DNA from: Pachysolen tannophilus NRRL Y-2460
Taxonomy: Eukaryota
NCBI GenBank assembly: GCA_001661245.1
Contig: KV454015.1
Span: forward strand, 124,001 to 188,000
Reading direction: 5' to 3'
DNA length: 64,000 nucleotides
The notes under the pieces were generated by a model. That model was not told where the DNA came from. It was given only the letters and a program-made list of their open reading frames with translations, and searched no databases. This document shows positions 8,831-64,000 of this stretch, one piece after another. The position numbers and the translations under genes were made by a program. Numbering within the stretch: the first letter of the stretch is position 1; every line of letters begins with the position of its first letter.

Positions 8831-9787
8831 ATGAGTTCTCAAAGTCGTAATCCGAAGTTGGAGAGAACGCTTGAGCGTTTTAAGCTGAAAATTGATCAAG
8901 GTTCCTACTATGAGGCATCTTTAACAATTCAGACAATTGTTAGTAGATATGTTAAGATGAAGAATTATAATGATTCGATTGAGTTATTATATCATGCTGC
9001 TTTAACGTTATTGGAACTTAAGCAATCTGCTCCTGGGTGTGAACTTTTTTTGAAGTTGATTGATCTTTTGAAAAATTTAGATGGAGATCATAATAATTAT
9101 GATTTATATTTGAAACAACAGTTGCCAAAATTTCTTCAATTATTACAAGAAATACCGAAAGATGATCCTGCTTTAAGTGATATTGCCAAAGAATTGATAA
9201 CTTATTCCATTTCAATAACTCCATATAAATTAGGGGATCCTATTTTAAATTTCAATATAGGTAAAAAATTCTTGATGAGTGGGAATATGGAAAATTATTA
9301 TAAAGCAGAACAATTTTTAATATTGAGTGGTGATAATGATAATGCATTAGATTTATATATTGAATTATTACATCAATGGTATTTGAATGATGAAACTAAA
9401 GATTTTACAACTTATTTTATTAGATTAATCATAAATTACTTATATGTTGGTAATATCAAATTTGCTCTTAAAGGTTTTAAAAAATTAGTTGATAAATTAG
9501 AATTAAAAAATTATACTCTTAAAGAAAATGGATTTCTCTTATTTGAAAATGAAAAATTATTAAATTTTTTACAATTGTTAATAAGAGTAATTCAAAGATC
9601 AGAAAAAGGATCTTTCAATATTTTCAAAAATTTAATTAATAGATATAAAGAATTATTATTGGAACGAAACTTGTTAAATCCTCTCAATTATTTAAGTAAA
9701 TTATATTTCAATGAAACAATTTTACAACAACAGAATAATGATATTTTCCAAAATTTGATGAGCGGATTTTTGAGAGGAAATAACTGA
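8831..9787 (+). CDS. GET4: GET pathway factor Get4
   Basis: KLERTLERF...YYEA...IVSRY, GDP motif, LLNFLQLLI, C-terminal QNLMSGFL; divergent from SEY1. First ATG is at 8831 (the track's GTG start is not used). Confidence 0.85.
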   Translation: MSSQSRNPKLERTLERFKLKIDQGSYYEASLTIQTIVSRYVKMKNYNDSIELLYHAALTLLELKQSAPGCELFLKLIDLLKNLDGDHNNYDLYLKQQLPKFLQLLQEIPKDDPALSDIAKELITYSISITPYKLGDPILNFNIGKKFLMSGNMENYYKAEQFLILSGDNDNALDLYIELLHQWYLNDETKDFTTYFIRLIINYLYVGNIKFALKGFKKLVDKLELKNYTLKENGFLLFENEKLLNFLQLLIRVIQRSEKGSFNIFKNLINRYKELLLERNLLNPLNYLSKLYFNETILQQQNNDIFQNLMSGFLRGNN

Positions 9788-9895: not shown

Positions 9896-10522
9896 CTAGT
9901 AATTGTCTACTTCCATATGTTTATCAATAATGTTTCCATGCGGATCAACATCAACGTCCTCGATATCTTTACGTATTGAACTTTCATTTAGGGCCAGTAA
10001 TAACTCGGGTCTCTTTGCCTTTGTCAATTCATGTTTGGCTTCCGAATAAGTACACCATCTTCTATCTCGTGTATCACTCTCTGGCCATTCCTGACATAAT
10101 TCTTTGACTTCCATTTCATAAAAATGGAATTCAGATCGTGGGATTTTGGAAAGATCATCATCCATATTATTAACATCAATAAACGCTTTTTGACCTTCAT
10201 CCAATTCTTTCACAAATCTATGGTCTTCAACAGGTGTTAATTTCAGAAGTATATTTCCTATAATCCCAGCTTCTTCCCATGTTTCTCTTATCGCTGTAAT
10301 GGCATAATCATTTTCCTCATCTTTCTCAATTCCTCCCTTCGGTATAATCCACCTGTTTTTATGTTTTGCAGAAGTAACCATAATCAATTTTGTCTTATCT
10401 TCATTCAATGCAACACATCCCGCAATCAACCTAGCACCTGTCTTGGCCGAATACACCTGATTATCCCTACCTTCTCTTGCCTTAGTGGTCTTTGTGAATT
10501 GTATTATATTGTTATGTGCCAT
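9896..10522 (-). CDS. DDP1: Nudix diphosphoinositol-polyphosphate/Ap6A hydrolase
   Basis: AREGRDNQVYS, WIIPKGG...RETWEEAG Nudix box, PRSEFHFYE, KRPELL. Confidence 0.96.
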   Translation of the reverse strand: MAHNNIIQFTKTTKAREGRDNQVYSAKTGARLIAGCVALNEDKTKLIMVTSAKHKNRWIIPKGGIEKDEENDYAITAIRETWEEAGIIGNILLKLTPVEDHRFVKELDEGQKAFIDVNNMDDDLSKIPRSEFHFYEMEVKELCQEWPESDTRDRRWCTYSEAKHELTKAKRPELLLALNESSIRKDIEDVDVDPHGNIIDKHMEVDNY

Positions 10523-21231: not shown

Positions 21232-21565
21232 CTTTAACATTTTTTTTTTTTTTTTTAATCTTTCTATTCTTCACAGATGGATTTATTTGTGAATTTAAAG
21301 ATATATCTTTTATAGAATGAATGTAAGAATCTAAAAATGCTATTAATGAACTCATAGGGGTTAATGTTATGGATAATGAATAATCATCATTTGATTTTGT
21401 GAAAAATAAATAAAATAAAAAAAAAAAAAAAAAAATTTACACAAAATTACATAAGTTAAAAAAGTTTTTTATTTTTTTTATTTTATTTATTTTTCAAGTA
21501 GAAATAATAGTTTATTCATTTAATTGAAGAACGAGGTAGAGGTATTGAAATATAGTGCTGCTGAT

Positions 21566-23137
21566 ATGAGTACTGAAATAGAAGAAAAGTCTGAGAAACC
21601 ATTGGAAGATGGGATTGATGGGAAAGTGGAATCTTTTGTAGCTGAAGATAAAGAACAAAATAATATAAATGATTCACAACAGGAAGAGAAGCAAACTATA
21701 GATTCTATCTTAAATAAGTTAGATGCAAACGATGATGAGGTTGTACCATATTTATCTGATGATGATGTTGCTGATATAAGTTTGCACAGTGAAGGGGAGA
21801 ACTCGGAAACGGATGCTTCTTCTGAATCATCGAACAACGAAACTGATGAGAGTGATCAAAGTGATCAAAGTGATCAAAGTGATGAGGATGAAGATAAGCA
21901 TGATAGGAAATCATCAGTTGCAGAGGTGGAATATGAAGACGATGATTTTGAAGAAGGAAATGATGATGGTCCTATTAGATCGAAGAACGAAGTGCTGGAT
22001 GAGCTTGCACCGGCTATACCGAAAGATGTTATAATAGATGAAAAGACTCCAATCGAGCTTATTGGAGAAGTAACATCATTGGTAGAACGCAGCATTATTA
22101 TTAAGGCACATGTATCTGCTGAATTTCGAGTCTTGAAAGAAGGATCCTTATTATGCTTTGAAGATAGATCTCTTTTAGGACCACTTTTCGAAGTATTTGG
22201 ACGATTGCAACAACCTTTTTATAGGGTTAAATTTAATACTGATGAAGATTTCAATAATTTTAAAGAAAAATTACATAGTAAAGTTTATTATGTTGTCCCC
22301 AAAGCACATTTTGTACAAACTTCCTCGATACGATTATTCAAAGGATCAGATGCATCAAATGCAAATGATGAAGAGGTTGATGAAAATAATTTGGATTATT
22401 CCGATGATGAACAAGAACAACTTGCTAAGAAATTGAAAAAGAAAAATAAAGGATCTAAAACTAAAAATCTGGACAAAAATTTGGAAAATGATTCAGGAAA
22501 ACTGATTCGTGCAATGGGACTGCTTCCGCAACCACCAACTTCTGTTAAACGTTCTATGGATACATTATTTGATAATAGTTCACAGCAACAAAAACGTAAA
22601 GTTCAAGACTATAAACCCATTTATACACAATACAAATCCATTTCTGAGCGTGAACGTCAACAGAAACCACAAGAACCACAACCAAAAGTTACAGAAACGC
22701 CAATTCAAGCTCACCAACTGATGCTGCTATTACAACTGCAATTCCAAAAAATAAATGAAAATAATAGCAGGCAACATAAAACGCAACATATACCTTCACA
22801 GCAACAACAACAACAACAACAACAACAACAGAGTTTCAACGGTAATCATTTTCCTTATCAGCAGCAACAGCAGCAGCAACAGCAACAGCAACAGTTCCAA
22901 CCTCGGGCCAATCCGTTACAGGCACTGCAATTTCAGCAGCTTCAAAATGCATTTATTTCACAAATGCAGCAGCAACAACAGCAACAACAACAACAACAGC
23001 AACAGCCTTATGTATCATACCAAAATCAGCAGCCACCACCACAACATAGAGAAAGAAAAAGTTATGATAAACGATTTCACTATAACAATAGACAGGAAGA
23101 ATTTAAAGATGATTCAAATGATGGGTTCGATTATTAA
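21566..23137 (+). CDS. NAF1: H/ACA snoRNP assembly factor Naf1
   Basis: GPIRSKNE, Gar1/Naf1 domain (VLKEGS...FEVFG...PFYRVKF), KGSDASNANDEE...YSDDEQE, Q-rich tail. First ATG at 21566. Confidence 0.93.
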   Translation: MSTEIEEKSEKPLEDGIDGKVESFVAEDKEQNNINDSQQEEKQTIDSILNKLDANDDEVVPYLSDDDVADISLHSEGENSETDASSESSNNETDESDQSDQSDQSDEDEDKHDRKSSVAEVEYEDDDFEEGNDDGPIRSKNEVLDELAPAIPKDVIIDEKTPIELIGEVTSLVERSIIIKAHVSAEFRVLKEGSLLCFEDRSLLGPLFEVFGRLQQPFYRVKFNTDEDFNNFKEKLHSKVYYVVPKAHFVQTSSIRLFKGSDASNANDEEVDENNLDYSDDEQEQLAKKLKKKNKGSKTKNLDKNLENDSGKLIRAMGLLPQPPTSVKRSMDTLFDNSSQQQKRKVQDYKPIYTQYKSISERERQQKPQEPQPKVTETPIQAHQLMLLLQLQFQKINENNSRQHKTQHIPSQQQQQQQQQQQSFNGNHFPYQQQQQQQQQQQQFQPRANPLQALQFQQLQNAFISQMQQQQQQQQQQQQQPYVSYQNQQPPPQHRERKSYDKRFHYNNRQEEFKDDSNDGFDY

Positions 23138-27274: not shown

Positions 27275-27908
27275 ATGAGCGATAAGTTTCAGCCAAAGAC
27301 CGCTGTTCAATTGGATCCTCCAAGAGATGATCCTATAACTATAGAAGAATTATCAAAATATGATGGTAAGTCTTAATTAAAAATTTAAAATCAAGTTAAT
27401 AGATTAAATGAATTAATTTTTTTGATCCCAATTCTTTTTTTTTGTTTCTAACATCTCGGGTCTACTTGTACTTTTTATTTAGGAGAACAATCAGATAAGA
27501 TGTACATTGCAATAAAGGGAACAATTTTCGATGTTTCACATAATATAAAAGCTTATGGTATTGGTAAAGGTTATCATGTCTTGGTAGGAAGGGACGCTTC
27601 AAGGGCGCTAGGGAAATCAAGCTTAAAACCTGAAGATACAGATCTTCTGGTCTCTTGGGACTACTCGGTCTTGGACGAGAGACAATTAAAAGTCTTGGAT
27701 GATTGGTTTACATTCTTCAGTAATAGGTAAGTTATCATTAACAAGGGGAAATTATACATATACACACACAGAAAAAAAGAAAAGAAAAGAAATATAAATA
27801 CTAACATTACTTTTTTTTTTATTTTTATTTTTTTTTTTATCTTCCAGATATAACATAGTTGGAAAAGTATCTAACATACCTTCTACTTCTAGCGCTCTGA
27901 AAAATTGA
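27275..27908 (+). CDS. Cytochrome b5-like heme/steroid-binding (MAPR) protein, 131 aa; join(27275..27365,27483..27726,27848..27908)
   Basis: Spliced product MSDKFQPKTAVQLDPPRDDPITIEELSKYDG-EQSDKMYIAIKGTIFDVS...GRDASRALG...WFTFFSNR-YNIVGKV. Both introns start GTAAGT, have CTAAC branch points and end in YAG. Confidence 0.92.
27366..27482 (+). other. Spliceosomal intron 1 of the MAPR gene
   Basis: GTAAGT ... TTCTAAC (27446-27452) ... TAG; removal restores the frame. Confidence 0.9.
27727..27847 (+). other. Spliceosomal intron 2 of the MAPR gene
   Basis: GTAAGT ... TACTAAC (27799-27805) ... CAG; removal restores the conserved RYNIVGK end. Confidence 0.92.
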
Positions 27909-31400: not shown

Positions 31401-32256
31401 GGATCAAAAAGTACAAGGTTTGGAGAGAAATGTATCAACACCTTCATTGGCTGAATTTCAGATCCATAATAATAGAGACAACAAATCTGATCACGAAAAT
31501 GAGTTGAGAGCCAAATCAAATGAGATTGCAAGTTTGACTAAAAAATTAGCAGATGAACGTAAAAAAAGATACATTGCAGAAGAACATGCTTTAAGATGGG
31601 AAAATGGGATGAAACCTTCTGCTTTGGATTTGAATTATAAAAATTCGGAATTATCTAAAAAATTAAAGGATAAAGAAGAATTAATTGATCAATATCTGTC
31701 GAAACTAGCAATTTTGGAACTGGAAAAACCAGAGTTATTGAACAAGATTAAAACTTTAAATAAGAAGAACAAGAATTATGAAAGAAATATTATTCCAAAT
31801 TTAGAAAATCAGCTTACAATTTTACAAAATGACAACAAATACAAGAAACTAGAGCAGGATTTCAAGTTTTTGAATATAGAAAATGAGAATTTGAAAAAAG
31901 AATTAAATGAATCAAGGGATATAACTTCTTTAGAAGATCAGAAAAATGCTTTACGGGATGCATTAAGATCACTTAAAGATCAATCGGATAGAGAATTAAG
32001 ACTTTCTCAGGACAAAATTAAAATTTTAGAATCTAGAATCTCCAAGATGAGTTCTCCTAATCTTGGAAATAGAAAATTTACAAATGAAAGATCAGTATCT
32101 CAAAATACTTCACCAAATTTAAGATTTGATACTAGTTTTCAAAATTTCAACAGTGATGAAATTTTTGAAAATGATAACGATTCAACGGATAACAATTTTT
32201 CAACAAAAAAATCAGTTAAATTACCTGTTGTAATTGCCACCAATTTTAATGAATGA
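28465..32256 (+). CDS. EPO1: Epo1-like ER-polarity protein (YMR124W family), polyQ N-terminus, coiled-coil C-terminus
   Basis: SNTQYRKQM, repeated (G/D)PRAMS(L/M) and RTMSL, LLSELEFVSKELADSISRE; lies between PKR1 and STO1 as in S. cerevisiae. Confidence 0.75.
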   Translation: MEAGMSSLKTGPRSTPNGFPEHMKSQMLSEMAAVDVTKEVPFRPNYPSSLANQQQQVPQQLQYYPPQFQQQQQLQQQQQLQQQQQLQQQQQLQQQQQFYLQGQGQGAGVGQGQYANYPQQQQQQFLVDYNQQGLMRPGPYSPNMNRMRPGPPKTASSSRRSSMVSTSTSMNNFFKKGMKGMRFGHHDKEVAGFVDDDEKDVLMDSSDVYFNDIERISDRGRYGTGSTSSTALDSTPLIPTFVSRPADSPNTGINSVRGNKISNTQYRKQMTAAKKLLYARAANSSGAPPGGPRAMSMQNSFGYEDPMDSRTMSLNSSPFAGLGYNRPGMMDPRAMSLSTNGMAVSPFYRQPQLQRSAILPQGQQQQQLQQLQGGPRAMSLTNGPMNRGYPGPRPIYPPQTRFSSPQQFQRGQYQPLVSGAGMGQGPESTLVQGPQQQDSYPTPPGTQQQQQQPISSSSGDVAGPTLSTFQKNNDSNNIYDNNEKNIAEGNEEYQKVEVADIQQEISQTQKPKKLRRIPPPITSTEDLVQQLQGSESQKDVNNNALSGNHEKGRELELGDASPVHRPAMSPPAGLRLNTSNQPSHQPSLNKIDFNISPTIASNNKNEISKEKSTTQIEDSDASFVGKRNSVPNHNGHSRIKSLSTISGSSGMSSSKEQNQTQNNRYLYQLTNNTTLTDVFVTATQLSLHDGASADEEHHDHDFSVGNDHADTISIPSNLNKYDALDENDKNNLSDVSTIRLSGNLDLDLEKNMLSKRSSFISSHRVLNPSSLKTSSSNNTSSKKKNSFIKRLSFGKPSSSKKEKKSDIITSDNSIKDKEKADGVIYVKSPTDRIISKEDSIFNNGRNDKNSTTDMHLLEKPEKSKEIRDFSFGSEAEVLRTGPLFGQRSSTSLISNAISSSRFLSSQASVVIPKANGVEDHSSSSEIVKVPSANNMNSNTPKLEFTVEQLGIMQANSSLLSELEFVSKELADSISREIILDQKVQGLERNVSTPSLAEFQIHNNRDNKSDHENELRAKSNEIASLTKKLADERKKRYIAEEHALRWENGMKPSALDLNYKNSELSKKLKDKEELIDQYLSKLAILELEKPELLNKIKTLNKKNKNYERNIIPNLENQLTILQNDNKYKKLEQDFKFLNIENENLKKELNESRDITSLEDQKNALRDALRSLKDQSDRELRLSQDKIKILESRISKMSSPNLGNRKFTNERSVSQNTSPNLRFDTSFQNFNSDEIFENDNDSTDNNFSTKKSVKLPVVIATNFNE
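28621..28835 (+). repeat. CAA/CAG polyglutamine tracts with 18-bp (QQQQQL) periodicity
   Basis: CAACAACAACAGCAGCTA-type units in tandem. Confidence 0.9.
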
Positions 32257-36426: not shown

Positions 36427-36916
36427 NNNNNNNNNNNNNNNNNNNNNNNNNNNNNNNNNNNNNNNNNNNNNNNNNNNNNNNNNNNNNNNNNNNNNNNNNN
36501 NNNNNNNNNNNNNNNNNNNNNNNNNNNNNNNNNNNNNNNNNNNNNNNNNNNNNNNNNNNNNNNNNNNNNNNNNNNNNNNNNNNNNNNNNNNNNNNNNNNN
36601 NNNNNNNNNNNNNNNNNNNNNNNNNNNNNNNNNNNNNNNNNNNNNNNNNNNNNNNNNNNNNNNNNNNNNNNNNNNNNNNNNNNNNNNNNNNNNNNNNNNN
36701 NNNNNNNNNNNNNNNNNNNNNNNNNNNNNNNNNNNNNNNNNNNNNNNNNNNNNNNNNNNNNNNNNNNNNNNNNNNNNNNNNNNNNNNNNNNNNNNNNNNN
36801 NNNNNNNNNNNNNNNNNNNNNNNNNNNNNNNNNNNNNNNNNNNNNNNNNNNNNNNNNNNNNNNNNNNNNNNNNNNNNNNNNNNNNNNNNNNNNNNNNNNN
36901 NNNNNNNNNNNNNNNN
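36427..36916. other. Assembly gap (N run)
   Basis: Run of N. Confidence 1.
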
Positions 36917-37886: not shown

Positions 37887-40800
37887 ATGTCGTATAACGA
37901 TAATTATTATGATCCAAATCAACCGGCTCACCCTGATCAAGAAGGTTACTATGCTGAGGGATATCATCCATCAGATGAAGGTTTACAAAATCAGGAGGGT
38001 TATTATGATTCGAATCAAGATGTAGCGTATTATAATCAACCTTATGATCAAGGGGTTTATGAGCAGCCAGCAGGTTACGATGCAGGATATGATCAGCAAT
38101 ATGCTGACCAGCAATACGCTGACCCTTCACTGCAAGGTTATTATGAACAACCAAGAGCTGGTGATCCAGAAGCATTTTCGGATTTCAGTTATGGTCCAAA
38201 TGGAGCAGGCATCCCTTACGATAGTTATGGTACTCAATATACTCCTTCTCAAATGTCATATGGTGGTCCAAGATCTTCTGGTGCTTCAACACCAATTTAT
38301 GGTGCTGGTCCTTATGATCCAAATGCAATGGCAGTTTTGCCAAGAGATCCTTATCCAGCATGGACAGCTGATAACCAAGCACCTGTTTCCATCGAAGAAA
38401 TTGAAGATATTTTTATTGATCTTACAAATAAATTCGGTTTCCAAAGAGATTCGATGAGAAATATGTTTGACCATTTCATGGTTTTATTGGATTCAAGATC
38501 TTCACGTATGGCTCCTTCTCAAGCTTTATTATCTTTACATGCAGATTATATTGGTGGTGATAATGCTAATTATAAAAAATGGTATTTTGCTGCTCAGTTG
38601 GATTTAGATGATGAAGTTGGATTTGCCAACATGAAAATGGGTAAATTATCTAGAAAGGCAAGAAAGGCAAAGAGAAAGTCTAAAAAGGCAAGAAAAGCTG
38701 TTGAACAAAACGGTGAAGATACAGAACGTACATTAAATGAGTTGGAAGGTGATAACTCTTTGGAAGCTGCTGATTATAGGTGGAAAACCAAAATGAACGC
38801 ATTAACACCAATTGAAAGAGTTAGACAAATTGCATTATATTTATTATTATGGGGTGAAGCAAATCAAGTTAGATTTGTTCCAGAATGTTTATGTTTTATC
38901 TTGAAATGTGCTGAAGATTATTTAGTATCACCAGCTTGTCAACAGAGAGCAGAACCTGTTCCAGAAGGTGATTACTTAAATAGAGTGATTACTCCTTTGT
39001 ATCGTTTCATTAGATCTCAAGTTTATGAAGTTCTTGATGGTCGTTATGTTAAACGTGAAAGGGATCATAACAAAGTCGTTGGTTATGATGATATAAACCA
39101 ATTGTTTTGGTATCCTGAAGGTATTTCAAGAATCATCTTTGAAGATGGTACAAGATTAGTTGAAATTCCAGCAGAAGAAAGATATATTAGACTTGGAGAA
39201 TGTGACTGGAAAAACGTATTCTTTAAAACTTATAAAGAAACTCGTTCATGGTTACATTTACTTATAAACTTTAACCGTATTTGGATTATCCATGGTACCA
39301 TTTATTGGATGTACACTGCTTATAACTCTGAAACATTGTATACTCATGATTATGTTTACTTGGTTAATAATCAACCTACACCATCATCGCATTGGGCTGC
39401 TTGTGCTTTAGGTGGTACTTTTGCTTCCTTTGTTCAAATCTGTGCTACTTTAGCTGAATGGTTATTTGTTCCAAGAAAATGGGCTGGTGCTCAACGTTTA
39501 ACGAGAAGATTAATGTTTTTATCTTTAATCTTTGCTATTAACTTGGCTCCTGTGATCTTCGTCTTTGCATGGGCAGGTATTGATACTTATTCTAAATCCG
39601 CTTATGCTGTATCTGTTGTTGCCTTCTTCATTGGTATTGCAACTTTATTATTTTTTGCTATTATGCCACTTGGTGGATTATTCACTTCTTATATGAAGAA
39701 AAGTTCAAGAAGATATGTTGCTTCTCAAACCTTTACCGCTTCATTTTCTAAATTACATGGTTTAGATATGTGGATGTCTTACTTATTATGGGTTACAGTT
39801 TTCACCGCTAAGTTAGTTGAATCATACTACTTTTTGACTTTGTCTTTAAAGGATCCAATTAGAAATTTATCAACTATGACCATGCGTTGTACCGGTGAAT
39901 ACTGGTGGAGTAATAAGTTATGTAAGCAACACTCAAAGATTGTTTTAGGTTTGATGTACGCAACAGATTTCATTTTATTCTTTTTAGATACTTATATGTG
40001 GTACATTGTTTGTAACTGTGTTTTCTCTATTGGTCGTTCATTCTATTTGGGTATTTCGATTTTAACTCCATGGAGAAATATTTTCACAAGATTACCAAAG
40101 AGAATATATTCAAAGATTTTGGCAACAACTGATATGGAAATAAAATATAAACCAAAAGTTTTAATTTCTCAAGTTTGGAATGCAGTTGTCATTTCTATGT
40201 ACAGAGAACATTTGTTAGCTATTGTTCACGTTCAAAAATTGTTATACCATCAAGTTCCATCTGAAGTTGAAGGTAAACGTACTTTGAGAGCTCCAACTTT
40301 TTTTGTTTCACAAGATGATAACAACTTTGAAACTGAATTTTTCCCAAGAAATTCAGAAGCTGAACGTCGTATCTCTTTCTTTGCACAATCCTTGGCTACT
40401 CCAATTCCAGAACCATTACCAGTTGACAATATGCCAACTTTCACAGTTTTCACTCCTCACTACTCTGAAAAAATCTTGTTGTCGTTACGTGAAATTATTC
40501 GTGAAGATGATCAATATTCAAGAGTCACTCTTTTAGAATACTTGAAACAGTTACACCCAGTTGAATGGGACTGTTTTGTTAAGGATACTAAGATCTTGGC
40601 TGAAGAAACTGCTGCATACGAAAACGAAGGCTTGGAAGATGAAAAAGAAGATAACTTGAAATCTCAAATTGATGATTTACCATTCTACTGTATTGGTTTT
40701 AAATCTGCTGCACCTGAATATACTTTAAGAACAAGAATTTGGGCTTCTTTAAGATCTCAAACTTTATACCGTACTGTTTCCGGTTTCATGAATTATGCTA

Positions 40801-43532
40801 GAGCAATTAAATTGTTATACCGTGTTGAAAATCCTGAAATTGTTCAAATGTTTGGTGGTAATGCGGAAGGTTTAGAAAGAGAATTAGAGAGAATGGCTAG
40901 AAGAAAGTTCAAATTTTTAGTTTCTATGCAAAGATTAGCCAAGTTTAAACCAGAAGAATTAGAAAATGCCGAGTTTTTGTTACGTGCTTACCCAGATTTG
41001 CAAATCGCTTTCTTAGATGAAGAACCACCATTGAATGAAGGTGAAGAACCAAGAATCTTCTCCTCCTTAGTTGATGGTCACTGTGAAATTATGGAAAATG
41101 GTCGTAGAAGACCAAAATTCAGAGTTCAATTATCTGGTAATCCAATTTTAGGTGATGGTAAATCTGATAATCAAAATCAAGCTATTATTTTTACTCGTGG
41201 TGAATATTTACAATTGATTGATGCCAACCAAGATAACTATCTTGAAGAATGTCTTAAGATTAGATCTGTCCTTGCTGAATTCGAAGAATTAAACGTTGAA
41301 CTGGTAAACCCATATGCTCCAGGCTTAAGCTCAGAAGACAAAGAAAAGATTCATCCAGTTGCTATTGTCGGTGCTCGTGAATATATTTTCTCAGAAAACA
41401 CTGGTGTCTTGGGTGATGTTGCTGCAGGTAAAGAACAAACTTTTGGTACATTATTTGCTCGTACGTTAGCTCAAGTCGGTGGTAAATTGCATTATGGTCA
41501 TCCGGATTTCCTTAATCAAATTTTTATGAATACTCGTGGTGGTGTTTCAAAGGCTCAAAAGGGTTTACATCTTAATGAAGATATTTACGCAGGTATGACT
41601 GCTCTTTGTCGTGGTGGTAGAATTAAACATTGTGAATACTACCAATGTGGTAAAGGTCGTGATTTAGGTTTCGGTTCGACTCTTAACTTCACGACTAAGA
41701 TTGGTGCAGGTATGGGTGAACAGATGTTATCCCGTGAATACTATTATTTAGGAACCCAATTACCTCTTGATCGTTTCTTGTCTTTCTATTATGCCCATCC
41801 TGGTTTCCATATCAATAATCTTTTCATTCAAATGTCTTTGCAATTGTTCATGTTAACTTTGATCAACTTGAACGCTTTGGCACACGAAGGTATTATGTGT
41901 TATTACAATAAGAACCAGCCAATTACTGATTTGCGTGTTCCTTACGCTTGTTACAATTTAGCTCCAGCTATTGATTGGATTCGTCGTTATACATTATCTA
42001 TTTTCATCGTTTTCTTTATTTCCTTTATTCCTTTGGTCGTTCAAGAGTTGATTGAACGTGGTGTTTGGAAAGCTACTCAAAGATTTTTCCGTCACTTATT
42101 ATCATTGTCTCCAATGTTTGAAGTTTTTGTTGCTCAAATCTATTCTTCTTCATTATTGACAGATATCACTGTTGGTGGGGCTCGTTATATTGCCACTGGT
42201 AGAGGTTTTGCAACTGCTCGTATTCCGTTCTCTGTTTTGTATTCACGTTTTGCTGAATCTGCTATTTACATGGGTGCCAGATGTATGTTAATGTTGTTAT
42301 TTAGTACTCTTGCACACTGGCAAGCTGCATTGTTATGGTTCTGGGCTTCTTTATCTGCGTTGATGTTTTCGCCTTTCATTTTCAATCCTCATCAATTTGC
42401 TTGGGAGGATTACTTTATTGATTACCGTGATTTCATCAGATGGTTGTCACGTGGTAACACAAAGTGGCACAGAAACTCTTGGATTGGTTATGTTCGTCTT
42501 TCAAGATCTAGAATTACTGGTTTCAAGCATAAGTTAGTTGGTGATGAATCTGAAAAAGCTGCTGGTGATGCTGCTCGTGCTCATCGTTCCAACCTTTTGT
42601 TCTCAGACTTCATTCCATGTGCTATCTATACAGCTGGTTGTTTCATTGCTTTTACTTTCATAAACGCTCAAACTGGTGTAACAGATGCCACTGCTGTCAA
42701 TTCAACGTTACGTGTTATTATTTGTGCATTAGCTCCGGTTGCTGTTAATGCAGGAACCTTAATGCTCGCTGTTGGTTTATCATGTTGTTCAGGTCCATTA
42801 TTTGGTTTATGTTGTAAGAAGACTGGTGCTGTTATGGCTGGTTTTGCCCACGGTGTTTCTGTTATTGTTCATCTCATTTTCTTTGTTGTCATGTGGGTAT
42901 TGGAAGGTTTTTCATTACCAAAATGTTTAATTGGTGTTATTACTTGTATTTATGCCGAACGTTTACTTTTCAAATTCTTGACTTTAGCCTTCTTGACTAG
43001 AGAATTTAAGAGTGATCATGCTAATACTGCTTTCTGGACTGGTAAATGGTACGGATCTGGTTTAGGTTGGATGGCTTGGACTCAACCATGTCGTGAATTC
43101 TGTGCTAAGATTATTGAATCTTCAGAATTTGCTGGTGATTTTGTCTTAGGTCATATCATCTTATTCTGTCAATTTCCAATATTGTGTATTCCATTGATCG
43201 ACAGATGGCACTCAACAATGTTGTTCTGGTTAAAGCCTTCAAGACAAATCAGACCACCGATTTATTCACTTAAACAAGCCCGTTTGAGAAGAAGAATGGT
43301 TAGAAAGTACATGACTTTGTACTTCACTGTATTTGCCACCTTTGCAGCTGTTATTGTCGGTCCAGCAGTTGCTTCTGGTTATGTAAATATTGATGATAGT
43401 GTATTGACTGGAGTAACAACTGGTCTTGTTCAACCACGTCATCAAGATAACAATGATACAGGTAGCAACGCTCCTAAATATGCATTGACTACAACTACCC
43501 CTTCGATGTCCACATGGTCGACAATTGCTTAA
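37887..43532 (+). CDS. FKS1: 1,3-beta-D-glucan synthase catalytic subunit
   Basis: 1881 aa; [53 protein letters not shown], hot spots FLTLSLKDP and DWIRRYTL. Confidence 0.99.
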
Positions 43533-44072: not shown

Positions 44073-45904
44073 ATGAAGTTTATTAACTCAATAAAGTTGT
44101 TGGCCTTGTTTGCTGGCGGTGAAATTGCGCAATGTGCAATTTCAAATGGTAATATTGGGATTGGGCATCAAGCTTCAATTCAAGACTCACAATTTGGATT
44201 GACGAATTCCTTAAACCCTGTACTTAAAGCACCAAATGCTTATTCACATATTGCACCTATTGAAGTGTATGGTAACAAGTTTTTTTTTCGAATAATGGTT
44301 CTCAATTTTTTTTGAAAGGTATTGCCTATCAACCAGATTTTAATCATTATCATCATCTGGGGAAAGCTGAAGATAAAAAAGGTTATATTGATCCTTTGGC
44401 ATACTCAGAAATATGTTCCAGAGACATTGAGTATTTAAAAGAATTGAATGTTAATGTCATTAGAGTCTATGCGATTGATCCACAGGCAAATCATGATTAT
44501 TGTATGAATCTATTAGCTAAAAACAATATTTATCTCATTGCTGATTTATCTGAGCCAAAACTGTCTGTAGATAGAAAAGAACCTACTTGGGATGGTGATC
44601 TTTATGATCGTTATAAAAATGTTGTTGATGCACTTGAGAAATATAATAATGTTTTAGGTTTTTTTGCTGGAAATGAAGTTGTTAATGATAGAACAACAAC
44701 ATCTGCTGCTCCTTTTGTTCGTGCTTCTATTAGAGATGTTAAAAAACATATTGTCAAGAAAAAATATCGAAATATTCCAATTGGATACTCTACCAATGAT
44801 GATTCTCAAATTAGAGATTTTTTATCTAATTATTTTATTTGTGGTGATGACAATACTAGTAAAGCTGATTTTTATGGTATTAACAATTATGAATGGTGTG
44901 GTCACTCAACTTTTAGGACTTCTGGATATAGTGAAAGAGTCCTGGATTTTAAAAATTTTCCAATTCCTGTTTTCTTTTCTGAATTTGGTTGTAACACTGT
45001 GAGACCAAGACCATTTACTGAAGTTGATGCATTGTTTAGTCCCTTGATGTCAGATGCATTTTCCGGTGGAATTATGTATATGTATTTTGAAGAACAAAAT
45101 CAATTTGGTGTTGTTGAAATTGTTGATTCTAAAAACTTATCCAGTCCTGTTAAGAAATTGGAAGATTTCAAATTCTTGCAATATGAATACGGTAAAGTAA
45201 ACATTAAAGGTGTACATAGAGAAGATTATAAACCAAGTCTGACTGGTAATGTAAGTTGCAAAGAACAAACAGAAAATTGGAAAGCATCTACAGTTTTACC
45301 AAATACACCAGATCAATTTAAGTGTGACTGTTTATTGAGTGCCTTATCATGCACAAAAGCACCAATTCTGACTATAACTTTAGAAGAAAGAAAAGATCTA
45401 TATGGGAAAATATGCAGTGCAAATGAATCAGAAACATTACCATGTGCAAAGATTAGTGGAAATGGTACTACAGGTAAATATGGTATCTTTTCAGGATGTC
45501 GTCAAAGCCAACGTTTATCCTTTGCTTTGAATGAATATTTTATGAGAAACAATCAAGGAATGACTTATTGTGATTTTGAAAATAAGGCGATTATCGTCAA
45601 TAGCAGAAATTCAATCGAAGATTTGAAGGCAATTAATGAGCCAAATAGCAGTATAAGAAGAACTTGTTTTGATGCAATTGGTGAAGAATATATCAGTGCC
45701 ATATATGGGGAATTTAAAGCCAATGAAAAGACAGATGAGACAGAATCAATTTCTCCAAGTACTGAAACAGCTATAATGAGATCCGGAGCAACTAGAATTA
45801 CAGTTGCTCGTTCTAAAAAAATTAGTGATGGTATCATAAACAGCATTGCAACGATAATGGTTGTAGCATTTGCAGTATTAGCTTTTACAAGTATTTTCAA
45901 ATAG
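44073..45904 (+). CDS. GAS2: GH72+ beta-1,3-glucanosyltransferase (Gas2-like), split by a 1-nt frameshift at the T-run 44280-44288
   Basis: Signal peptide and IEVYGNKFF in one frame; [15 protein letters not shown]...GFFAGNEV...FFSEFGCN, Cys-box and GPI-like tail in another. Directly downstream of FKS1, like S. cerevisiae GAS2. Confidence 0.85.
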
Positions 45905-46048: not shown

Positions 46049-46882
46049 TCAATCTTTCTTTGGACCCCATTTAACTCCTAAAAACCCTGTATTTGGATCT
46101 TTAATTCTGAATCTTTTTTCTGGAACTTTTGGTCCAACTACAAAATGTCTGTCTTCACCTGGGACATCCAATGCAATATAAGAGAATTCTTGCTTAAAAT
46201 AGCTGTCGTCAATAGCTTCTAGTTGAACAACACCATGTTTTGTTTTGCTTTCAACATGAAATCTCATCAAGACATGTTCCTTGCCATCTAATCCTACTCT
46301 TCTAACAGAAGAAATTGGTCTATTTCTTGTCCATTTGTCGGACCCTGTTTCTCCGTAAGCCTTCAATCTTGTTCCTTCTTCTACTCGCAATAATTTCAGA
46401 GCAACTGGATCATCTTCCACCAATTTGACTGCTCTATTAAAAGTTTGGGTATCACCAGAAGGGAAAGCTATTTCCGCAATGACCAAATAGATGACAATGC
46501 ATGCAAGTCCTGCTGCACCTAGCACAAGAATCGATGAGGCAGAAAATGTAATTGCTCTTGATAATCTATTGAAAAATGAGCTTTTAGTTTGCGAACTTTT
46601 TTGACTTTGGGAAGACGAAGATTTAGTCGAATTAAATCTCATACCAACATTCATAAACCTAATTCCATAAACGTTATTAGCATTCAAATTTTTTCTCAAT
46701 AGTATGAGAGTTTTTGCCAGTTCCTTTTGTGACAGATGTGTTCTGAAAACATTATGATACAGTCTAATACCTAAAAAAGACCTCATCGCTGGTTGAAAAT
46801 TGTGAAAAGTTGAATTTTTCAATTGGAATGAACTAAAAGGTCCATGGAAATTCCCAATTATTTTTGGCAAATTCTTCATCAT
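46049..46882 (-). CDS. TIM21: Mitochondrial import subunit Tim21
   Basis: Presequence, single TM, FPSGDTQTFNRAV, LKAYGE, WTRNRPI, MRFHVES, GFLGVKWGPKKD. Confidence 0.96.
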   Translation of the reverse strand: MMKNLPKIIGNFHGPFSSFQLKNSTFHNFQPAMRSFLGIRLYHNVFRTHLSQKELAKTLILLRKNLNANNVYGIRFMNVGMRFNSTKSSSSQSQKSSQTKSSFFNRLSRAITFSASSILVLGAAGLACIVIYLVIAEIAFPSGDTQTFNRAVKLVEDDPVALKLLRVEEGTRLKAYGETGSDKWTRNRPISSVRRVGLDGKEHVLMRFHVESKTKHGVVQLEAIDDSYFKQEFSYIALDVPGEDRHFVVGPKVPEKRFRIKDPNTGFLGVKWGPKKD

Positions 46883-47507
46883 TCTCCTTAAATACTCTCT
46901 TGAAATTATAGAATTACTCTTAAAATATCACCTACTCCCACTTTCACCGATTTGCAAGAATTATTGGCCAATCAACTAGTTAAATGAAAAATGGTGAACT
47001 CTGAATCCATCGTCCTTCAGTGGGTTTTTGGGGTTACCGTAATTGGTATTGCACGAACGACTGTTTTTTCTAATTATTTGTTTGCAATTTGAACCGTCAA
47101 CAAGTCATCAAATCACATCGCATTTTTGTCAGGCAATTGCAATTGTCTGTGGATCCGTTGGTTTTAAAAGTTCCCAGCTGACAATTGGTAATATAAAATT
47201 GCATATTGAGACGTTGAATTAGAAGTTAGAAGTCAAAAAGTCATGATTCGAATTTTCCTAAAAAAAAACTGTCAAATAACCCTGGTGTATATGGGTCAAA
47301 ATGCAAAGTTTTGGAAATTTTTCAGTTTAATTACACAAAATCTTTTTTCCCTAGATTCTAACTTCTTTTATTACCAATATAAACTTATATTGTGAATTAG
47401 GAATTACAGTTGACATGAGACTATAAATCATGATAATTTGATAATTTAAACAATTTTATTTTCTATTCAGCTGTTAAAGCAACGGCAATAAAAAGTTGTG
47501 TTTTTAA

Positions 47508-47580
47508 GCCCTTGTAGCGTAATGGTTAGCGCGTTGCTTTCCGGAGGCAAAGATTGCGGGTTCGAGTCCCGCCTCGGGTT
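47508..47580 (+). tRNA. tRNA-Arg(CCG)
   Basis: D arm GCGT-AATGGTTA-GCGC, anticodon arm TTGCT-TTCCGGA-GGCAA, T arm GCGGG-TTCGAGT-CCCGC. Acceptor GCCCTTG/CTCGGGT has two mismatches. T-run terminator about 14 nt downstream. Confidence 0.9.
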
Positions 47581-47659
47581 GAAATAAAATTAATTTTTTT
47601 ATTTTTTTGTATAAAGATATATATATATATATATATTGTACGGTGATGAGTTCACCCAA

Positions 47660-52928: not shown

Positions 52929-53723
52929 ATGGCCAAAATCAGTCAAGGTAAATATCGTTTATGTTATTTGGAAAAGTAGAAGAGAGAGAAGTGGTGATAA
53001 GTGGTTAGCAAATGGTGAGCAAACGAGGGATTATTGAAATCAAATAAAATTAAAGATTTCTTGCAAGATTTTTAACATTGATAATAATTATTGGAGAATA
53101 AATAATAAAGAGTATTTGTAAATACGATATTTTTAAAAGTTATTATTGTTGCTTTTGTTATGAGAAAAAAATGGAAAAAGCCAAATTTAATGTTGTGTGA
53201 TGATGGTTTCGTTCTTGTCCCTCGTTTCTCATGGCTTGTGAATTTTTGAGACCAAAAACATTTATTTGTTTCTTTCTCTCTCTCTCTCTTTTTTTATTCT
53301 TGTTTTTTCATCTGTACAGTACTAACAGTTTTTAAAAAAATTTTTTATTTGAATTTAGACGTTTCATCTTCAAGAAGCAAAGCTAGAAAAGCTTATTTCA
53401 ACGCTCCATCATCAGAACGTCGTGCTATCATGTCAGCACCTTTATCAAAAGAATTACGTGAACAATATAAAATCCGTTCTTTACCAATCAGAAAAGATGA
53501 TGAAATTTTGGTTACTAGAGGTTCAAAGAAAGGTTCTGAAGGTAAAATCACTTCAGTTTACAGATTAAAATATTCAATTCAAGTTGAAAAATTGACTAAG
53601 GAAAAATCAAATGGTGCTTCAGTTCCAATCAACATTCATCCTTCAAAAGTCGTCATCACCAAATTACATTTAGACAAAGATAGAAAGGCTTTGATTGAAA
53701 GAAAAGGTGGTGTTTCAGCTTAA
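52929..53723 (+). CDS. RPL26: 60S ribosomal protein L26 (uL24); join(52929..52947,53359..53723)
   Basis: Exon 1 MAKISQ+G spliced to AC GTT TCA gives [24 protein letters not shown]...; continues with SLPIRKDDE and [11 protein letters not shown]. Confidence 0.98.
52948..53358 (+). other. RPL26 intron (411 nt)
   Basis: GTAAAT donor, TACTAAC at 53320-53326, TTTAG acceptor. Confidence 0.93.
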
Positions 53724-57737: not shown

Positions 57738-60347
57738 ATGAATATCAGTAATATTTTGGAGACGGCGATATTGAGTCCGGATCCAGTAAAGAGAAATGAA
57801 GCTGAACGTCAATTAGAAGATGCTGCTATAAATCATTTTGTAACTTATTTAGGGTTATTAATTGAAGTTTTAGCTAATGAATCTGAAAAGACAGAAGTTA
57901 GAATGTTAGCAGGTATTCAATTGAAAAATCAATTTACTTCAAAAGATCAGAAAAAAAAATTGGAACAAATTGAAAGATGGATATCATTAGATAATTCTGC
58001 AAAACAAAAAATTAAAGAAATTTCTTTAAAATCATTATTAACCGCTGATGAACGTGTTGCAAATTCTGGTGCTCAATTGGTTGCAGCTATAGCAGATATT
58101 GAATTACCAAGAAATGAATGGCCACAATTATTACCAATAATAGTGGAAAATACAAAAACTGAACAACCAGTAAATGTTAAACGTGCATCATTACTTACAA
58201 TTGGTTATATTTGTGAAACTCTGGATCCAACAAATCAAAATATTGTTAGTCAAGCAAATGGAATTTTAATTGCAATTGTTCAAGGAGCTCAATCTTCAGA
58301 ACCTTCTGTTAAAGTAAGATTAACCGCTATAAATGCTTTAGTTAATTCATTAGAATTTATTAGATTTAATTTTGAAAGAGAAGGTGAAAGAAATTATATA
58401 ATGCAAGTTGTTTGTGAAGCAACTCAAGCTGATGATACTGAATTACAAGCAAGTGCATTTGGGGCTTTAGCTAAAATAATGAGTTTATATTATCATTATA
58501 TGAGTGTTTATATGGAAAGAGCATTATATGGATTAACTGTATCTGGTATGCAAAGTCAAGATGAAAAAGTTTCATGTATGGCTGTAGAATTTTGGTCAAC
58601 TGTTTGTGAAGAAGAATTAGAAATTGCATTACAAAAAGAAGAATATGCAGAAAGTATATCAACTGAAAATCCAGAATTAATTTCTTATAATTTTGCCTTG
58701 GTAGCAATTCAAGATGTTTTACCAACTTTATTAACTTTATTAACAAGACAAAATGAAGATCCTGAAGATGAATCTTGGACAGTTGCTATGGCTGCAGGTG
58801 CTTGTTTAACTTTATTTGCTCAAAATACTCAAAATTATGTAGTACAACCAACTTTACAATTTGTTGAACAACATATTGGTTCAAATAGTTGGAGAGATAG
58901 AGAAGCTGCAGTAATGGCATTTGGTTCTATATTAGATGGTCCTGATAGAGAACAGTTAAAACATTTGATTTCTCAAGCTTTAACTCCAATCTTGAATTTA
59001 ATTAAAGATGAATATTTACAAGTTAAGGAAACTGTTGCTTGGTGTCTTGGAAGAATTGCAGATTTAGTTGTTGATGCAATAGATATTAATACACAATTGC
59101 CAAATGTAATCCAGGCATTATTAATTGGATTACAAGATCATCCAAAAGTTTCAACAAATTGTTGTTGGACATTGATGAACTTGGTAGAACAATTATGTTC
59201 AAATGGTGTTCAAGAACAAACTACTGCAATGTCTCAATATTATGAAACTATTGTTCCAGTATTGATTCAATTAAGTGGTAGAGGTGATAATGAATATTCT
59301 TCAAGAGCTTCAGCTTATGAGGCATTATCTACTATGGTCTTGTACAGTTCTCTGGATGTTATGCCAATAGTTAATCAAATTGCTTCAGAAGCTTTGACAA
59401 GATTGGATGCAACAATTGGTATGCAATCACAAGTTCAAACTTCAGAAGATAAAGCCAATTTAGGTGAATTACAAACTAATATTTTATCTTTGTTAACTAA
59501 TGTTATTAGAAGAGCTGGTAAAGATGTTATTTCTGTTTCAGATAATTTGATGGAAATGTTTTTAAGATTATTACAAGCACAAGAACCAAATTCTATCATA
59601 GAAGAAGATATATTTATTGGTATAAGTGCTGTAGCTGATGCAATTGATAAAAATTTTATGAAATATATGGAACTGTTTTTACCTTATTTAACAAAGGCTT
59701 TAGAAAATACTGAATCTCCTATTTGTGAAACTGCTGTTGGTTTGGTTGCAGATATTTCTCATTCTTTAGGTGATTCAATAATACCATATTGTCAAGGTCT
59801 TATGAATATTTTGGGAAGCAATTTAAACCGTCCAGATGTTAAAAGGGAATTAAGACCAGTCATATTATCTTGTTTTGGTGATATTGCATCTTCAATTGGG
59901 AAAGAATTTATTCAATATTTGGATGTTGTTATGAATATTTGTAACCAAGCACAGAATTTACAACCATCAGATAGTTCAATTGAAACTCTTGATTACGTAT
60001 TAACTTTGAAAGAATCAGTTTTGGATGCCTATGTTGGTATTATCGCTGGGTTACATGATGATCCACAATCAATTTTAAAATATGTTCCTCAGATTTTCCA
60101 ATTCTTATTGTTATTATACACCGATATCAACATGATCTCTTCTGATAATACTTCAAGATCTGCCGTTGGTATGATCGGTGATTTAGCATCTATGTTTCCA
60201 AATGGTGATATCAAAGATGCATATCGTCAAGAATGGGTCACTGATCTCATTAAAAGAACTAGATCAAATAACAACTTTAGTCAACAAACTAAAGAAACTG
60301 CAAGATGGGCAAGAGATCAACAGAAGAAACAACTTGCTATACCATAA
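57738..60347 (+). CDS. KAP95: Importin beta-1 (karyopherin Kap95)
   Basis: AAIADIELP, NFEREGERNYIMQVVCEATQ, AVEFWSTVCEEE, REAAVMAFGSILDGP, ILSCFGDIA. First ATG at 57738. Confidence 0.98.
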   Translation: MNISNILETAILSPDPVKRNEAERQLEDAAINHFVTYLGLLIEVLANESEKTEVRMLAGIQLKNQFTSKDQKKKLEQIERWISLDNSAKQKIKEISLKSLLTADERVANSGAQLVAAIADIELPRNEWPQLLPIIVENTKTEQPVNVKRASLLTIGYICETLDPTNQNIVSQANGILIAIVQGAQSSEPSVKVRLTAINALVNSLEFIRFNFEREGERNYIMQVVCEATQADDTELQASAFGALAKIMSLYYHYMSVYMERALYGLTVSGMQSQDEKVSCMAVEFWSTVCEEELEIALQKEEYAESISTENPELISYNFALVAIQDVLPTLLTLLTRQNEDPEDESWTVAMAAGACLTLFAQNTQNYVVQPTLQFVEQHIGSNSWRDREAAVMAFGSILDGPDREQLKHLISQALTPILNLIKDEYLQVKETVAWCLGRIADLVVDAIDINTQLPNVIQALLIGLQDHPKVSTNCCWTLMNLVEQLCSNGVQEQTTAMSQYYETIVPVLIQLSGRGDNEYSSRASAYEALSTMVLYSSLDVMPIVNQIASEALTRLDATIGMQSQVQTSEDKANLGELQTNILSLLTNVIRRAGKDVISVSDNLMEMFLRLLQAQEPNSIIEEDIFIGISAVADAIDKNFMKYMELFLPYLTKALENTESPICETAVGLVADISHSLGDSIIPYCQGLMNILGSNLNRPDVKRELRPVILSCFGDIASSIGKEFIQYLDVVMNICNQAQNLQPSDSSIETLDYVLTLKESVLDAYVGIIAGLHDDPQSILKYVPQIFQFLLLLYTDINMISSDNTSRSAVGMIGDLASMFPNGDIKDAYRQEWVTDLIKRTRSNNNFSQQTKETARWARDQQKKQLAIP

Positions 60348-60638: not shown

Positions 60639-61030
60639 NNNNNNNNNNNNNNNNNNNNNNNNNNNNNNNNNNNNNNNNNNNNNNNNNNNNNNNNNNNNNN
60701 NNNNNNNNNNNNNNNNNNNNNNNNNNNNNNNNNNNNNNNNNNNNNNNNNNNNNNNNNNNNNNNNNNNNNNNNNNNNNNNNNNNNNNNNNNNNNNNNNNNN
60801 NNNNNNNNNNNNNNNNNNNNNNNNNNNNNNNNNNNNNNNNNNNNNNNNNNNNNNNNNNNNNNNNNNNNNNNNNNNNNNNNNNNNNNNNNNNNNNNNNNNN
60901 NNNNNNNNNNNNNNNNNNNNNNNNNNNNNNNNNNNNNNNNNNNNNNNNNNNNNNNNNNNNNNNNNNNNNNNNNNNNNNNNNNNNNNNNNNNNNNNNNNNN
61001 NNNNNNNNNNNNNNNNNNNNNNNNNNNNNN
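60639..61030. other. Assembly gap (N run) flanked by poly-T
   Basis: Run of N. Confidence 1.
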
Positions 61031-61485: not shown

Positions 61486-63447
61486 TTAAAAATCATCCAT
61501 ATTAACCAATTTGCTTTTCTTAACCTCTTCAAATTCTTTTATCCAAAATTCCATCTCTCTAATAGCATCCAAGCTATGTAAATTTACCGTTGGTATCACT
61601 TTGTCGAAATCTAGCAATATTACAAAAAAGCTTAATTCTCTAAAAGAAGAATGTTCACTATAAGGCACCTGGTACAATTGTATAAGCCTATTAACATTGA
61701 ACTGCTTTTCAATTTGTTCAATCTTGAAATTACTGTTATCATTTTTATCTCTGTTTTGCAACAAGATTCTCATTAAAATATCATTTTTGGACATTTCTTT
61801 CATCCATTTTGTAGAGTTTTGAGATAAATAAGACCAACCAGTAGGCCTGAAAACAACCATTTGAGTAAAATGATTTCTAAAAGGATGAAAATAATTTTCC
61901 AAATTATCGTTATTTAAATATCCCATAGGAATCAAATGTACCTGGGTCTCATAAGGGTTGTCAGTTATTAGATTTTTTAGCTCTGGCCAATCAAAAGTGT
62001 TCAAAATATCTCTTTTCGAGATATTTGCATAGACTTTACAATTCAAAGTCTTTGCAATGTCTAATGCAATTCTTTCCTTACCTATAGTATATGTACCAAT
62101 ACATATCAAATAATTTTTCTTATTTTTGTTAGATGATTGAAGTAAGTTTCTATTGAAAAAATCTGTTACTCTTTGTTGAATCTTTCTCCCAGAATACTCT
62201 CCACTTACAAGAGCATTTGTGAATTTACTGGTGATTGAAATCACATCTTCTTGTTTAGGGAAATCATAAGTTGGATTTAAATATGTAGTATCAAGGTAAC
62301 ACCTATTAATTTTCCCATAACATAATAATTTTGATATCATTTCTTTATTAATTCTAAAATCACCACAGTGTAATATTTTAAAATTTGTTTTCACATCTTT
62401 AAATAAAAAAATCCCACTTCCAGGACAATGATTTGCATCAATTAAGGTAACTTGAATATCAGTATCTGGAATCTGATAAGGTACATCAAATTCAAGACTT
62501 TTAATTATTTCTTCATTAACTTTAAATTTCAATATTAGTAGTTTTTTGGTAATATTTGAACAATAAATAATACCATTTGACCAATTTTTAGTGATCCCCA
62601 TATAATGATCAGAATGGAAATGAGATAGAAAATAGTTTACTATATCATCATGTTTGCGGTAGTTAAATGCATCAACAGCAAATTTTGTTGTAAAATTTGT
62701 TGTCAAAGATTTCAAATTATTATCATCATCTCCATTTTTAAATTCCAATATTTTCAACTGTGGTATTGGTTGTCTCTCTCTCTTTGGTTTATTCTCTTCT
62801 TTAATTTTAGTTTCTTCTTTAATATAACTTTCCTTTTTGTTTTCTTCAATTTCATCTTCCACTAATGAACAAGTTGAAGGATTTCCAAAATTATTAGATT
62901 TCATTGATTTATAAACATATCCAGTTTGAGTAGTGACGTTAAAGGTATTGGTCATTGTTGGATCCGTGGTAAAACAATCATTTACATGGATATTTCTATC
63001 ATCTAACGTGAGCTTTTCTATATCTATTCCACAAATCGGGCATGATATCTTTTCATCTAAAATTTTCAACTCATCATCTTGTATCTCATCATAATTTTTT
63101 TTTTCTAAAAACATCATCAGTTCTTGCCTATCATCAGTAGATAACTCTTTTACTTCTCCGGTTTCTCTCTTGACCACCAGCAGCACTGGCAGCAGTATCG
63201 GCAGCACTGGTGGCAGCACTGGTGATAGCACTGGTGATAGCACTGGTGGCAAAGGAAGCACCGCCAGATCATCATTATCATGATCTTCTTCACCATCACT
63301 GGTTAAATCTATAACATTGCTTTCATTCACTCTATTGCTATTTCTTAATCTGTTTCCTTCACTTTCAAATAAAGTTGATTGCACCAAACATTTCCTATTG
63401 CTCCTTGTCCCACTAGTTGATCTATACTTTCTCTTTTTTTGCAACAT
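61486..63447 (-). CDS. PSO2: DNA cross-link repair nuclease Pso2/Snm1 (beta-CASP)
   Basis: UBZ CPICG...HVNDC, FLSHFHSDHY, DANHCPG, HCGDFR, YLDTTY, PTGW, VPYSEHSSF, VIPTVN. Confidence 0.96.
   Translation of the reverse strand: MLQKKRKYRSTSGTRSNRKCLVQSTLFESEGNRLRNSNRVNESNVIDLTSDGEEDHDNDDLAVLPLPPVLSPVLSPVLPPVLPILLPVLLVVKRETGEVKELSTDDRQELMMFLEKKNYDEIQDDELKILDEKISCPICGIDIEKLTLDDRNIHVNDCFTTDPTMTNTFNVTTQTGYVYKSMKSNNFGNPSTCSLVEDEIEENKKESYIKEETKIKEENKPKRERQPIPQLKILEFKNGDDDNNLKSLTTNFTTKFAVDAFNYRKHDDIVNYFLSHFHSDHYMGITKNWSNGIIYCSNITKKLLILKFKVNEEIIKSLEFDVPYQIPDTDIQVTLIDANHCPGSGIFLFKDVKTNFKILHCGDFRINKEMISKLLCYGKINRCYLDTTYLNPTYDFPKQEDVISITSKFTNALVSGEYSGRKIQQRVTDFFNRNLLQSSNKNKKNYLICIGTYTIGKERIALDIAKTLNCKVYANISKRDILNTFDWPELKNLITDNPYETQVHLIPMGYLNNDNLENYFHPFRNHFTQMVVFRPTGWSYLSQNSTKWMKEMSKNDILMRILLQNRDKNDNSNFKIEQIEKQFNVNRLIQLYQVPYSEHSSFRELSFFVILLDFDKVIPTVNLHSLDAIREMEFWIKEFEEVKKSKLVNMDDF
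63178..63250 (-). repeat. 12-bp coding minisatellite in PSO2 (CCAGTGCT(A/G)(T/C)CA)
   Basis: Plus strand shows AGCACTGGTG(A/G) units, about 6 copies. Confidence 0.85.
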
Positions 63448-63654
63448 TCTCTTTGTAAATTCAACTCATTTAAATATTGAAATATATATTTATATATAAA
63501 ATATATATATTTGTATGGGTTTTTTCCTTTTTTTGCATTTTGCTCTCTTATAATTAAAATACCAATTTAATATAAATTTTGATTCATATTATATTTCAGA
63601 AAACTTGATCATTGATATGGATTAATAGCTAAACCAATAGCAAAGAACTGGAGA

Positions 63655-64000
63655 ATGGGGTTGATATCTATAATAAGGAAACAAAAGTTAAAAGATAAAG
63701 AATTAAGAGTATTAATGCTTGGTTTAGATAATAGTGGTAAGACAACAATTGTGAAATCATTATTGGGACAAGATGTTAAACAAGTTTCACCTACAATGGG
63801 GTTCAATATAGAGACAGTGGATTATCATGATTATATAATAAACATCTGGGATGTTGGTGGCCAATCTTCTTTGAGACCTTTTTGGTTTAATTATTTTGAA
63901 AAAACAGATTCTTTAATATGGGTGATTGATTCATTATCTCTTGAAAGATTACAAGAAAATTTTATTGAATTTAAAAAAATATTGATTGAAGATAGATTAA
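63655..64000 (+). CDS. CIN4: Arf-like GTPase Arl2/Cin4 (3'-truncated; absent from the ORF track)
   Basis: MGLISIIRKQKLKDKELRVLMLGLDNSGKTT...SPTMGFNI...WDVGGQSSLRPFWFNYFEKTD; divergent from PSO2. Confidence 0.93.
   Translation, partial: MGLISIIRKQKLKDKELRVLMLGLDNSGKTTIVKSLLGQDVKQVSPTMGFNIETVDYHDYIINIWDVGGQSSLRPFWFNYFEKTDSLIWVIDSLSLERLQENFIEFKKILIEDRL

Follow-up and report, generated by a model that had tools for sequence, protein, structure and literature searches.

CTG codons in a 64-kb window of Pachysolen tannophilus nuclear DNA avoid leucine columns and stand as alanine in the public proteins tested

Introduction

In the CUG-Ser1 yeasts (Candida, Debaryomyces; NCBI translation table 12), the codon CUG has moved from leucine to serine, and a serine tRNA(CAG) that has a long variable arm brings in the residue. 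The CUG-Ser2 yeasts (Ascoidea, Saccharomycopsis) are a case of independent CUG reassignment in the budding yeasts, to serine or to serine plus leucine (PMC5951914 and PMC6041473, in the parts drawn on here). In Ascoidea asiatica, the decoding of CUG as serine or leucine is described as stochastic. Reassigned sense codons are very rare in nuclear genomes, and the CUG-Ala code is one such case. It was described in 2016 on P. tannophilus NRRL Y-2460 (Mühlhausen et al. 2016, PMC4937558) and has its own NCBI table, number 26, with the label "Pachysolen tannophilus nuclei: CTG=A." The Ala clade consists of Pachysolen, Nakazawaea, and Peterozyma, as given in the portion of Krassowski et al. (2018, PMC5951914) cited here.

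In the passages of the 2016 report on which we draw, the tRNA(CAG) of strain NRRL Y-2460 clusters with alanine tRNAs. It has the G3:U70 pair inside a 5' G1GGC4 and the discriminator A73, and these passages describe it as free of the long variable loop of serine and leucine tRNAs. LC-MS/MS gave full support to 907 CUG positions, and 97.2% of these were alanine; the published data list 8 ambiguous and 18 non-alanine CUG positions. The level of deviation at CUG was similar to that at the unambiguous AUG codon and not more frequent, and CUG decoding was judged unambiguous. The genome has a total of 16,824 CUG positions, found in 80% of genes (PMC4937558, same passages).

Here we analyzed a 64-kb stretch of DNA, called the window below. 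An earlier note, made from the sequence alone, had read CTG in this window as alanine and had placed the genome in the Pachysolen/Nakazawaea clade. The source is P. tannophilus NRRL Y-2460, as the public protein for its GAS gene states, and it is the type organism of the CUG-Ala code. That Pachysolen and Nakazawaea share the code, as the note had it, agrees with the cited part of PMC5951914. We conclude that the window is almost certainly P. tannophilus nuclear DNA of the CUG-Ala clade, in which CUG is read as alanine under table 26.

The window compares with the described codes as follows. It has the same organism and strain as the Pachysolen nuclear code, its public proteins carry alanine at every CTG tested, and its CTG codons are rare and avoid conserved leucine columns; no difference from that code was found. 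It resembles the CUG-Ser1 yeasts in that CTG has moved off leucine, is scarce, and lies in non-leucine columns. However, the residue in those yeasts is serine, whereas the two conserved CTG columns of the window favor alanine and its public proteins do not correspond to table-12 translations. Unlike the CUG-Ser2 yeasts, the window has alanine and displays no sign of dual decoding. The CUG-Ala code in P. tannophilus is already known. Because it was described on exactly this strain, has its own table, and already underlies the deposited protein annotation, nothing new follows from finding it here. The practical meaning is that a standard-code translation of P. tannophilus has leucine where the cell has alanine, and that pipelines translating the window need table 26.

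Results

Content of the window

The window is AT-rich, with a G+C content of about 30% of called bases. By Pfam, its 26 large open reading frames (ORFs) are ordinary budding-yeast genes. They include KAP95, FKS1, the GH72 gene GAS, SPT8, SEY1, GET4, a DDP1-like Nudix gene, NAF1, the large cap-binding subunit, PSO2, and SWT1. CTG accounts for 92 of the 15,128 codons in these ORFs (0.61%); the earlier note had called CTG scarce in conserved genes. The note had also stated that the window has no tRNA(CAG) gene. ARAGORN reported only two arginine tRNAs in the 64 kb and no tRNA(CAG). The two tRNAs and three smaller coding stretches, all three outside the large-ORF list, are given below.

21159-21232, + strand: tRNA-Arg(TCT), ARAGORN
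47507-47581, + strand: tRNA-Arg(CCG), ARAGORN
53250-53723, + strand: RPL26-like exon without CTG
27452-27727, + strand: candidate heme-binding segment of the cytochrome-b5/Dap1 type, assigned by eye; contains a single CTG, at 27647
63616-63996, + strand: ARF-like GTPase, named by eye, running past the window end

The RPL26 reading frame has zero CTG codons, just as the note had recorded. The window also contains three runs of N, at 1396-2212 (817 bases), 36427-36916 (490 bases), and 60639-61030 (392 bases), and single Ns at 2228 and 60630. The runs are masked or unassembled stretches, and one of them lies directly downstream of KAP95.

CTG codons of KAP95

The KAP95 product has the Pfam domains TPR_IMB1, HEAT, and IBN_N, and it matches the Kap95 of the PDB with an E value of 2.6e-291. 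The gene and its CTG codons are as follows.

57738..60347, + strand: KAP95 (importin beta-1) coding sequence, 869 codons, three in-frame CTG
58221..58223, + strand: CTG at amino acid (aa) 162 (ICET-CTG-DP), conserved alanine column
59352..59354, + strand: CTG at aa 539, variable column
59673..59675, + strand: CTG at aa 646 (KYME-CTG-FLPY), Ala/Ser column

The earlier note had listed the codons at 58221 and 59673, both of which are in frame at these places, and had overlooked the third at 59352. Among 81 non-redundant homologues, the aa 162 column contains alanine in 60, serine in 14, valine in 4, and leucine in 3. The PDB alignment has alanine at this position in Saccharomyces cerevisiae, in the CESADP motif that the note had given. 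The aa 646 column contains alanine in 45 of the 81 homologues, serine in 15, valine in 8, threonine in 7, and leucine in 4. In the PDB alignments, this residue is alanine in human importin-beta, within the note's motif KYMEAFKPF, and also in Chaetomium, and it is threonine in S. cerevisiae. The aa 539 column is a mixture of asparagine (32), glutamine (11), aspartate (8), alanine (8), lysine (7), and others. The two columns at aa 162 and aa 646 are the only conserved alanine columns among the CTG sites aligned across homologues.

CTG codons of other genes

Four further genes contain CTG codons that the earlier note had cited, and FKS1 is listed with them.

10244..10246, - strand: CTG at DDP1 aa 93 (GNIL-CTG-KL); the table-26 translation of the ORF is an exact public entry
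44942..44944, + strand: CTG at aa 147 (ERV-CTG-DFKN) of GAS, a GH72 glucanosyltransferase; ORF start at 44504
8885..8887, + strand: CTG at GET4 aa 19 (RFK-CTG-KID); translated under table 26, the ORF matches a public entry exactly
21995..21997, + strand: CTG at NAF1 aa 144, directly upstream of the Gar1/Naf1 domain (Pfam)
37887..43532, + strand: FKS1 coding sequence with two CTG only, at 38130 and 41301; its product under table 26 matches a public entry exactly

The CTG codons given by the note for DDP1, GAS, GET4, and NAF1 are all in frame at these positions, and its count of two for FKS1 is exact. Structure alignments provided the S. cerevisiae residue at eight CTG sites of the window, and none of the eight is leucine. 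They are alanine, aspartate, and threonine in Kap95, alanine and glutamate in Ddp1, arginine in Tim21, asparagine in Get4 (at GET4 aa 19), and glutamine in Gsc2 (at FKS1 aa 1139). The alanine of Ddp1 stands at the position of DDP1 aa 93, which bears out the note's motif GKIVANL. Three of the four homologue motifs in the note are thus borne out by PDB alignments.

The GAS aa 147 column is variable, with glutamate in 33, lysine in 21, alanine in 12, and glutamine in 12 of 108 homologues. The residue is alanine in the public P. tannophilus protein and lysine in the S. cerevisiae GH72 protein of the alignment set; the note's fourth motif, DRTAEFKN, was given for Gas1. A GAS relative with 53% identity (P0268) has leucine in this column. 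Possibly, the codon is CTG there too, in an Ala-clade relative for which the protein prediction used the standard code.

The GAS gene itself begins upstream of the ORF start, in window positions 44073-44503 on the + strand. Coding for the first residues of the 594-aa public protein runs from 44073 in a different frame and is taken up again near 44360, which indicates a 5' intron.

Homologue columns at CTG sites

We aligned the products of four genes with non-redundant homologues that were at most 80% identical to the query. The alignments contained 81 of 120 homologues for KAP95, 72 of 120 for SEY1, and 108 of 120 for GAS; for CBC1, all 45 were used, out of 150 representatives listed. The four genes have 15 CTG columns. 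Three columns (GAS aa 246, GAS aa 289, and CBC1 aa 163) were excluded because their occupancy was below 50%, leaving 12 usable columns.

The mean leucine fraction was 0.082 at the 12 CTG columns, versus 0.577 at the 327 other leucine-codon columns of the same alignments. When 12 true leucine columns were resampled, 0 of 20,000 draws were as low in leucine as the CTG columns. Therefore, the CTG sites behave unlike leucine codons, and leucine is firmly rejected as their meaning on the window alone.

Alanine had the highest mean fraction of the three residues compared at the 12 columns (0.179), with serine at 0.084 next to the leucine value above. Compared with columns of its own ordinary codons, each residue was depleted. 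Serine was 0.084 at CTG columns versus 0.368 at true serine columns, and none of 20,000 resamples reached so low a value. Alanine was 0.179 versus 0.509 at ordinary alanine columns, and only 7 of 20,000 resamples fell to this level. The pooled empirical-profile log-likelihood over the 12 mostly variable columns was -35.0 for serine, -35.8 for alanine, and -44.4 for leucine. The marginal lead of serine over alanine in this measure comes from the predominance of variable, hydrophilic positions among the CTG sites. In SEY1, GAS, and CBC1, nearly all CTG sites are in variable or gapped columns and contribute little to deciding between alanine and serine. That CTG columns are far less conserved than ordinary alanine columns fits codons that have newly arisen at permissive sites.

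At 12 columns from four genes, the CTG sites decide against leucine, but the 64-kb window by itself cannot tell alanine from serine. The note's argument for alanine within the window holds only at KAP95 aa 162 and KAP95 aa 646 and, against S. cerevisiae, at DDP1 aa 93, all of which fall on alanine. However, the majority of CTG sites are in variable, hydrophilic columns, and the in-window support is thinner than the note had implied.

Public proteins and translation tables

We then compared the translations with public proteins. Three of these, for KAP95 (P0001, found in NCBI, UniRef, and nr), SEY1 (P0147), and GAS (P0267), differ from the standard-code translation of the window only at 3, 4, and 4 CTG codons, respectively, and all 11 of these codons are alanine in the public sequences. 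P0267 is PACTADRAFT_17291 [Pachysolen tannophilus NRRL Y-2460], and it matches the window ORF except for alanine at the four CTG codons. Moreover, when 10 ORFs were translated under table 26, seven gave sequences identical to NCBI/UniRef entries. These seven, GET4, DDP1, SPT8, CBC1, FKS1, PSO2, and SWT1, are all on one contig of 1,269,836 bases, which also carries P0267, and they contribute another 33 CTG codons. Five of the seven were also translated under the other tables. None of the five was a public entry under table 1, and none was a public entry under table 12; all five were under table 26. The earlier note's reading of CTG as alanine is therefore that of the public proteins, and its warning that standard-code translations of the window are wrong at CTG was justified.

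The remaining three of the 10 ORFs were NAF1, TIM21, and SEY1. The public protein of SEY1 is P0147, described above. The table-26 translations of NAF1 (21566-23137, + strand) and TIM21 (46049-46882, - strand) had no exact public entry, and the public gene models of these two genes probably use a different start codon or an intron. The deposited annotation renders CTG as alanine at every codon tested. Agreement with a public annotation reveals how the depositors translated, and it does not by itself reveal how the cell reads the codon. The latter is addressed by the published tRNA and mass-spectrometry data on the strain.

Discussion

Alternative readings of CTG

If the standard code applied, the CTG codons would encode leucine and would have come to lie at variable sites by chance. 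A few of them are in fact in hydrophobic columns. The GAS aa 20 column contains leucine in 27, valine in 23, and isoleucine in 14 of 108 homologues; the CBC1 aa 919 column contains leucine in 11 of 45; and human PFKFB2 and PFKFB3 both have methionine at the CTG site PFK26 aa 172. However, a leucine fraction of about one-seventh of that at other leucine codons, with no resample as low, is set against this reading, as is a log-likelihood about 9 units under those of alanine and serine. None of the five table-1 translations is a public protein, and the tRNA and the alanine-containing peptides reported in the cited passages of PMC4937558 contradict leucine directly. We reject the standard code, whose probability we put at practically nil. 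A serine code, as in the CUG-Ser1 yeasts under table 12 or the CUG-Ser2 yeasts, draws some support from the marginally better pooled profile likelihood and from Debaryomyces, which is one of the closest named relatives of the window's KAP95 at about 72% identity. But the conserved KAP95 columns favor alanine by 60 to 14 and by 45 to 15, and the CTG columns are far poorer in serine than true serine columns are. The table-12 translations of five ORFs match no public entry, whereas the table-26 versions of the same five all do. Furthermore, the source is P. tannophilus, and mass spectrometry on this strain, in the cited passages of PMC4937558, assigned alanine to nearly all supported CUG positions. 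Serine decoding is rejected on these grounds and is extremely improbable.

Decoding could also be mixed, mostly as alanine with a meaningful share of leucine or another residue, comparable to the serine and leucine of A. asiatica. Three of 16 examined CTG sites are in Leu/Met-like columns, and the published peptides include the 8 ambiguous and 18 non-alanine CUG positions mentioned above. Set against this are the deviation at CUG, which those passages of PMC4937558 put at the level of AUG, and the tolerance of alanine at many hydrophobic sites; the three Leu/Met-like columns therefore need no special explanation. Mixed decoding is thus rejected as well, as highly improbable. There is a slim chance that GAS aa 20, CBC1 aa 919, and PFK26 aa 172 are surviving leucine codons from before the reassignment or sites of low-level non-alanine decoding. 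If so, the Pachysolen reassignment would fall slightly short of being complete or of being unambiguous. The published proteomics speaks against this, and an incomplete or ambiguous reassignment at hydrophobic columns is unlikely.

Origin of the present CTG codons

Published work shows that the tRNA with anticodon CAG descends from an alanine tRNA, with G3:U70 and A73 kept and no long variable arm, and that it is charged with alanine, so that each CUG is read as alanine. For the codons themselves, the following sequence of events may be proposed. The ancestral leucine CUG codons would mostly have been lost before the codon was captured. The present CTG codons would then be rare and of new origin, and most of them would occupy hydrophilic sites of low conservation, with a minority at conserved alanine columns, such as KAP95 aa 162 and aa 646.

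CTG-rich stretches

High numbers of CTG codons were noticed in three places of the window. A 1,263-codon ORF at 28465-32256 on the + strand, with a glutamine-rich N terminus, has 17 CTG codons, the highest number of any gene in the window; it had no Pfam match at E <= 1e-5. In SPT8, residues 443 to 448 (19319-19334, - strand) include 4 CTG in six codons, in an acidic loop within the WD40 region. The stretch reads SEAAEAQAND under table 26. For two other SPT8 CTG codons, at aa 362 and aa 424, a PDB search with the WD40 segment gave generic WD40 proteins only. In PSO2, residues 78 to 90 (63180-63216, - strand) include 7 CTG in 13 codons. They belong to an N-terminal stretch rich in proline and valine, whose table-26 translation is PVAPPVAPIAAPVAAVV, a local rare-codon cluster in a low-complexity, non-conserved region.
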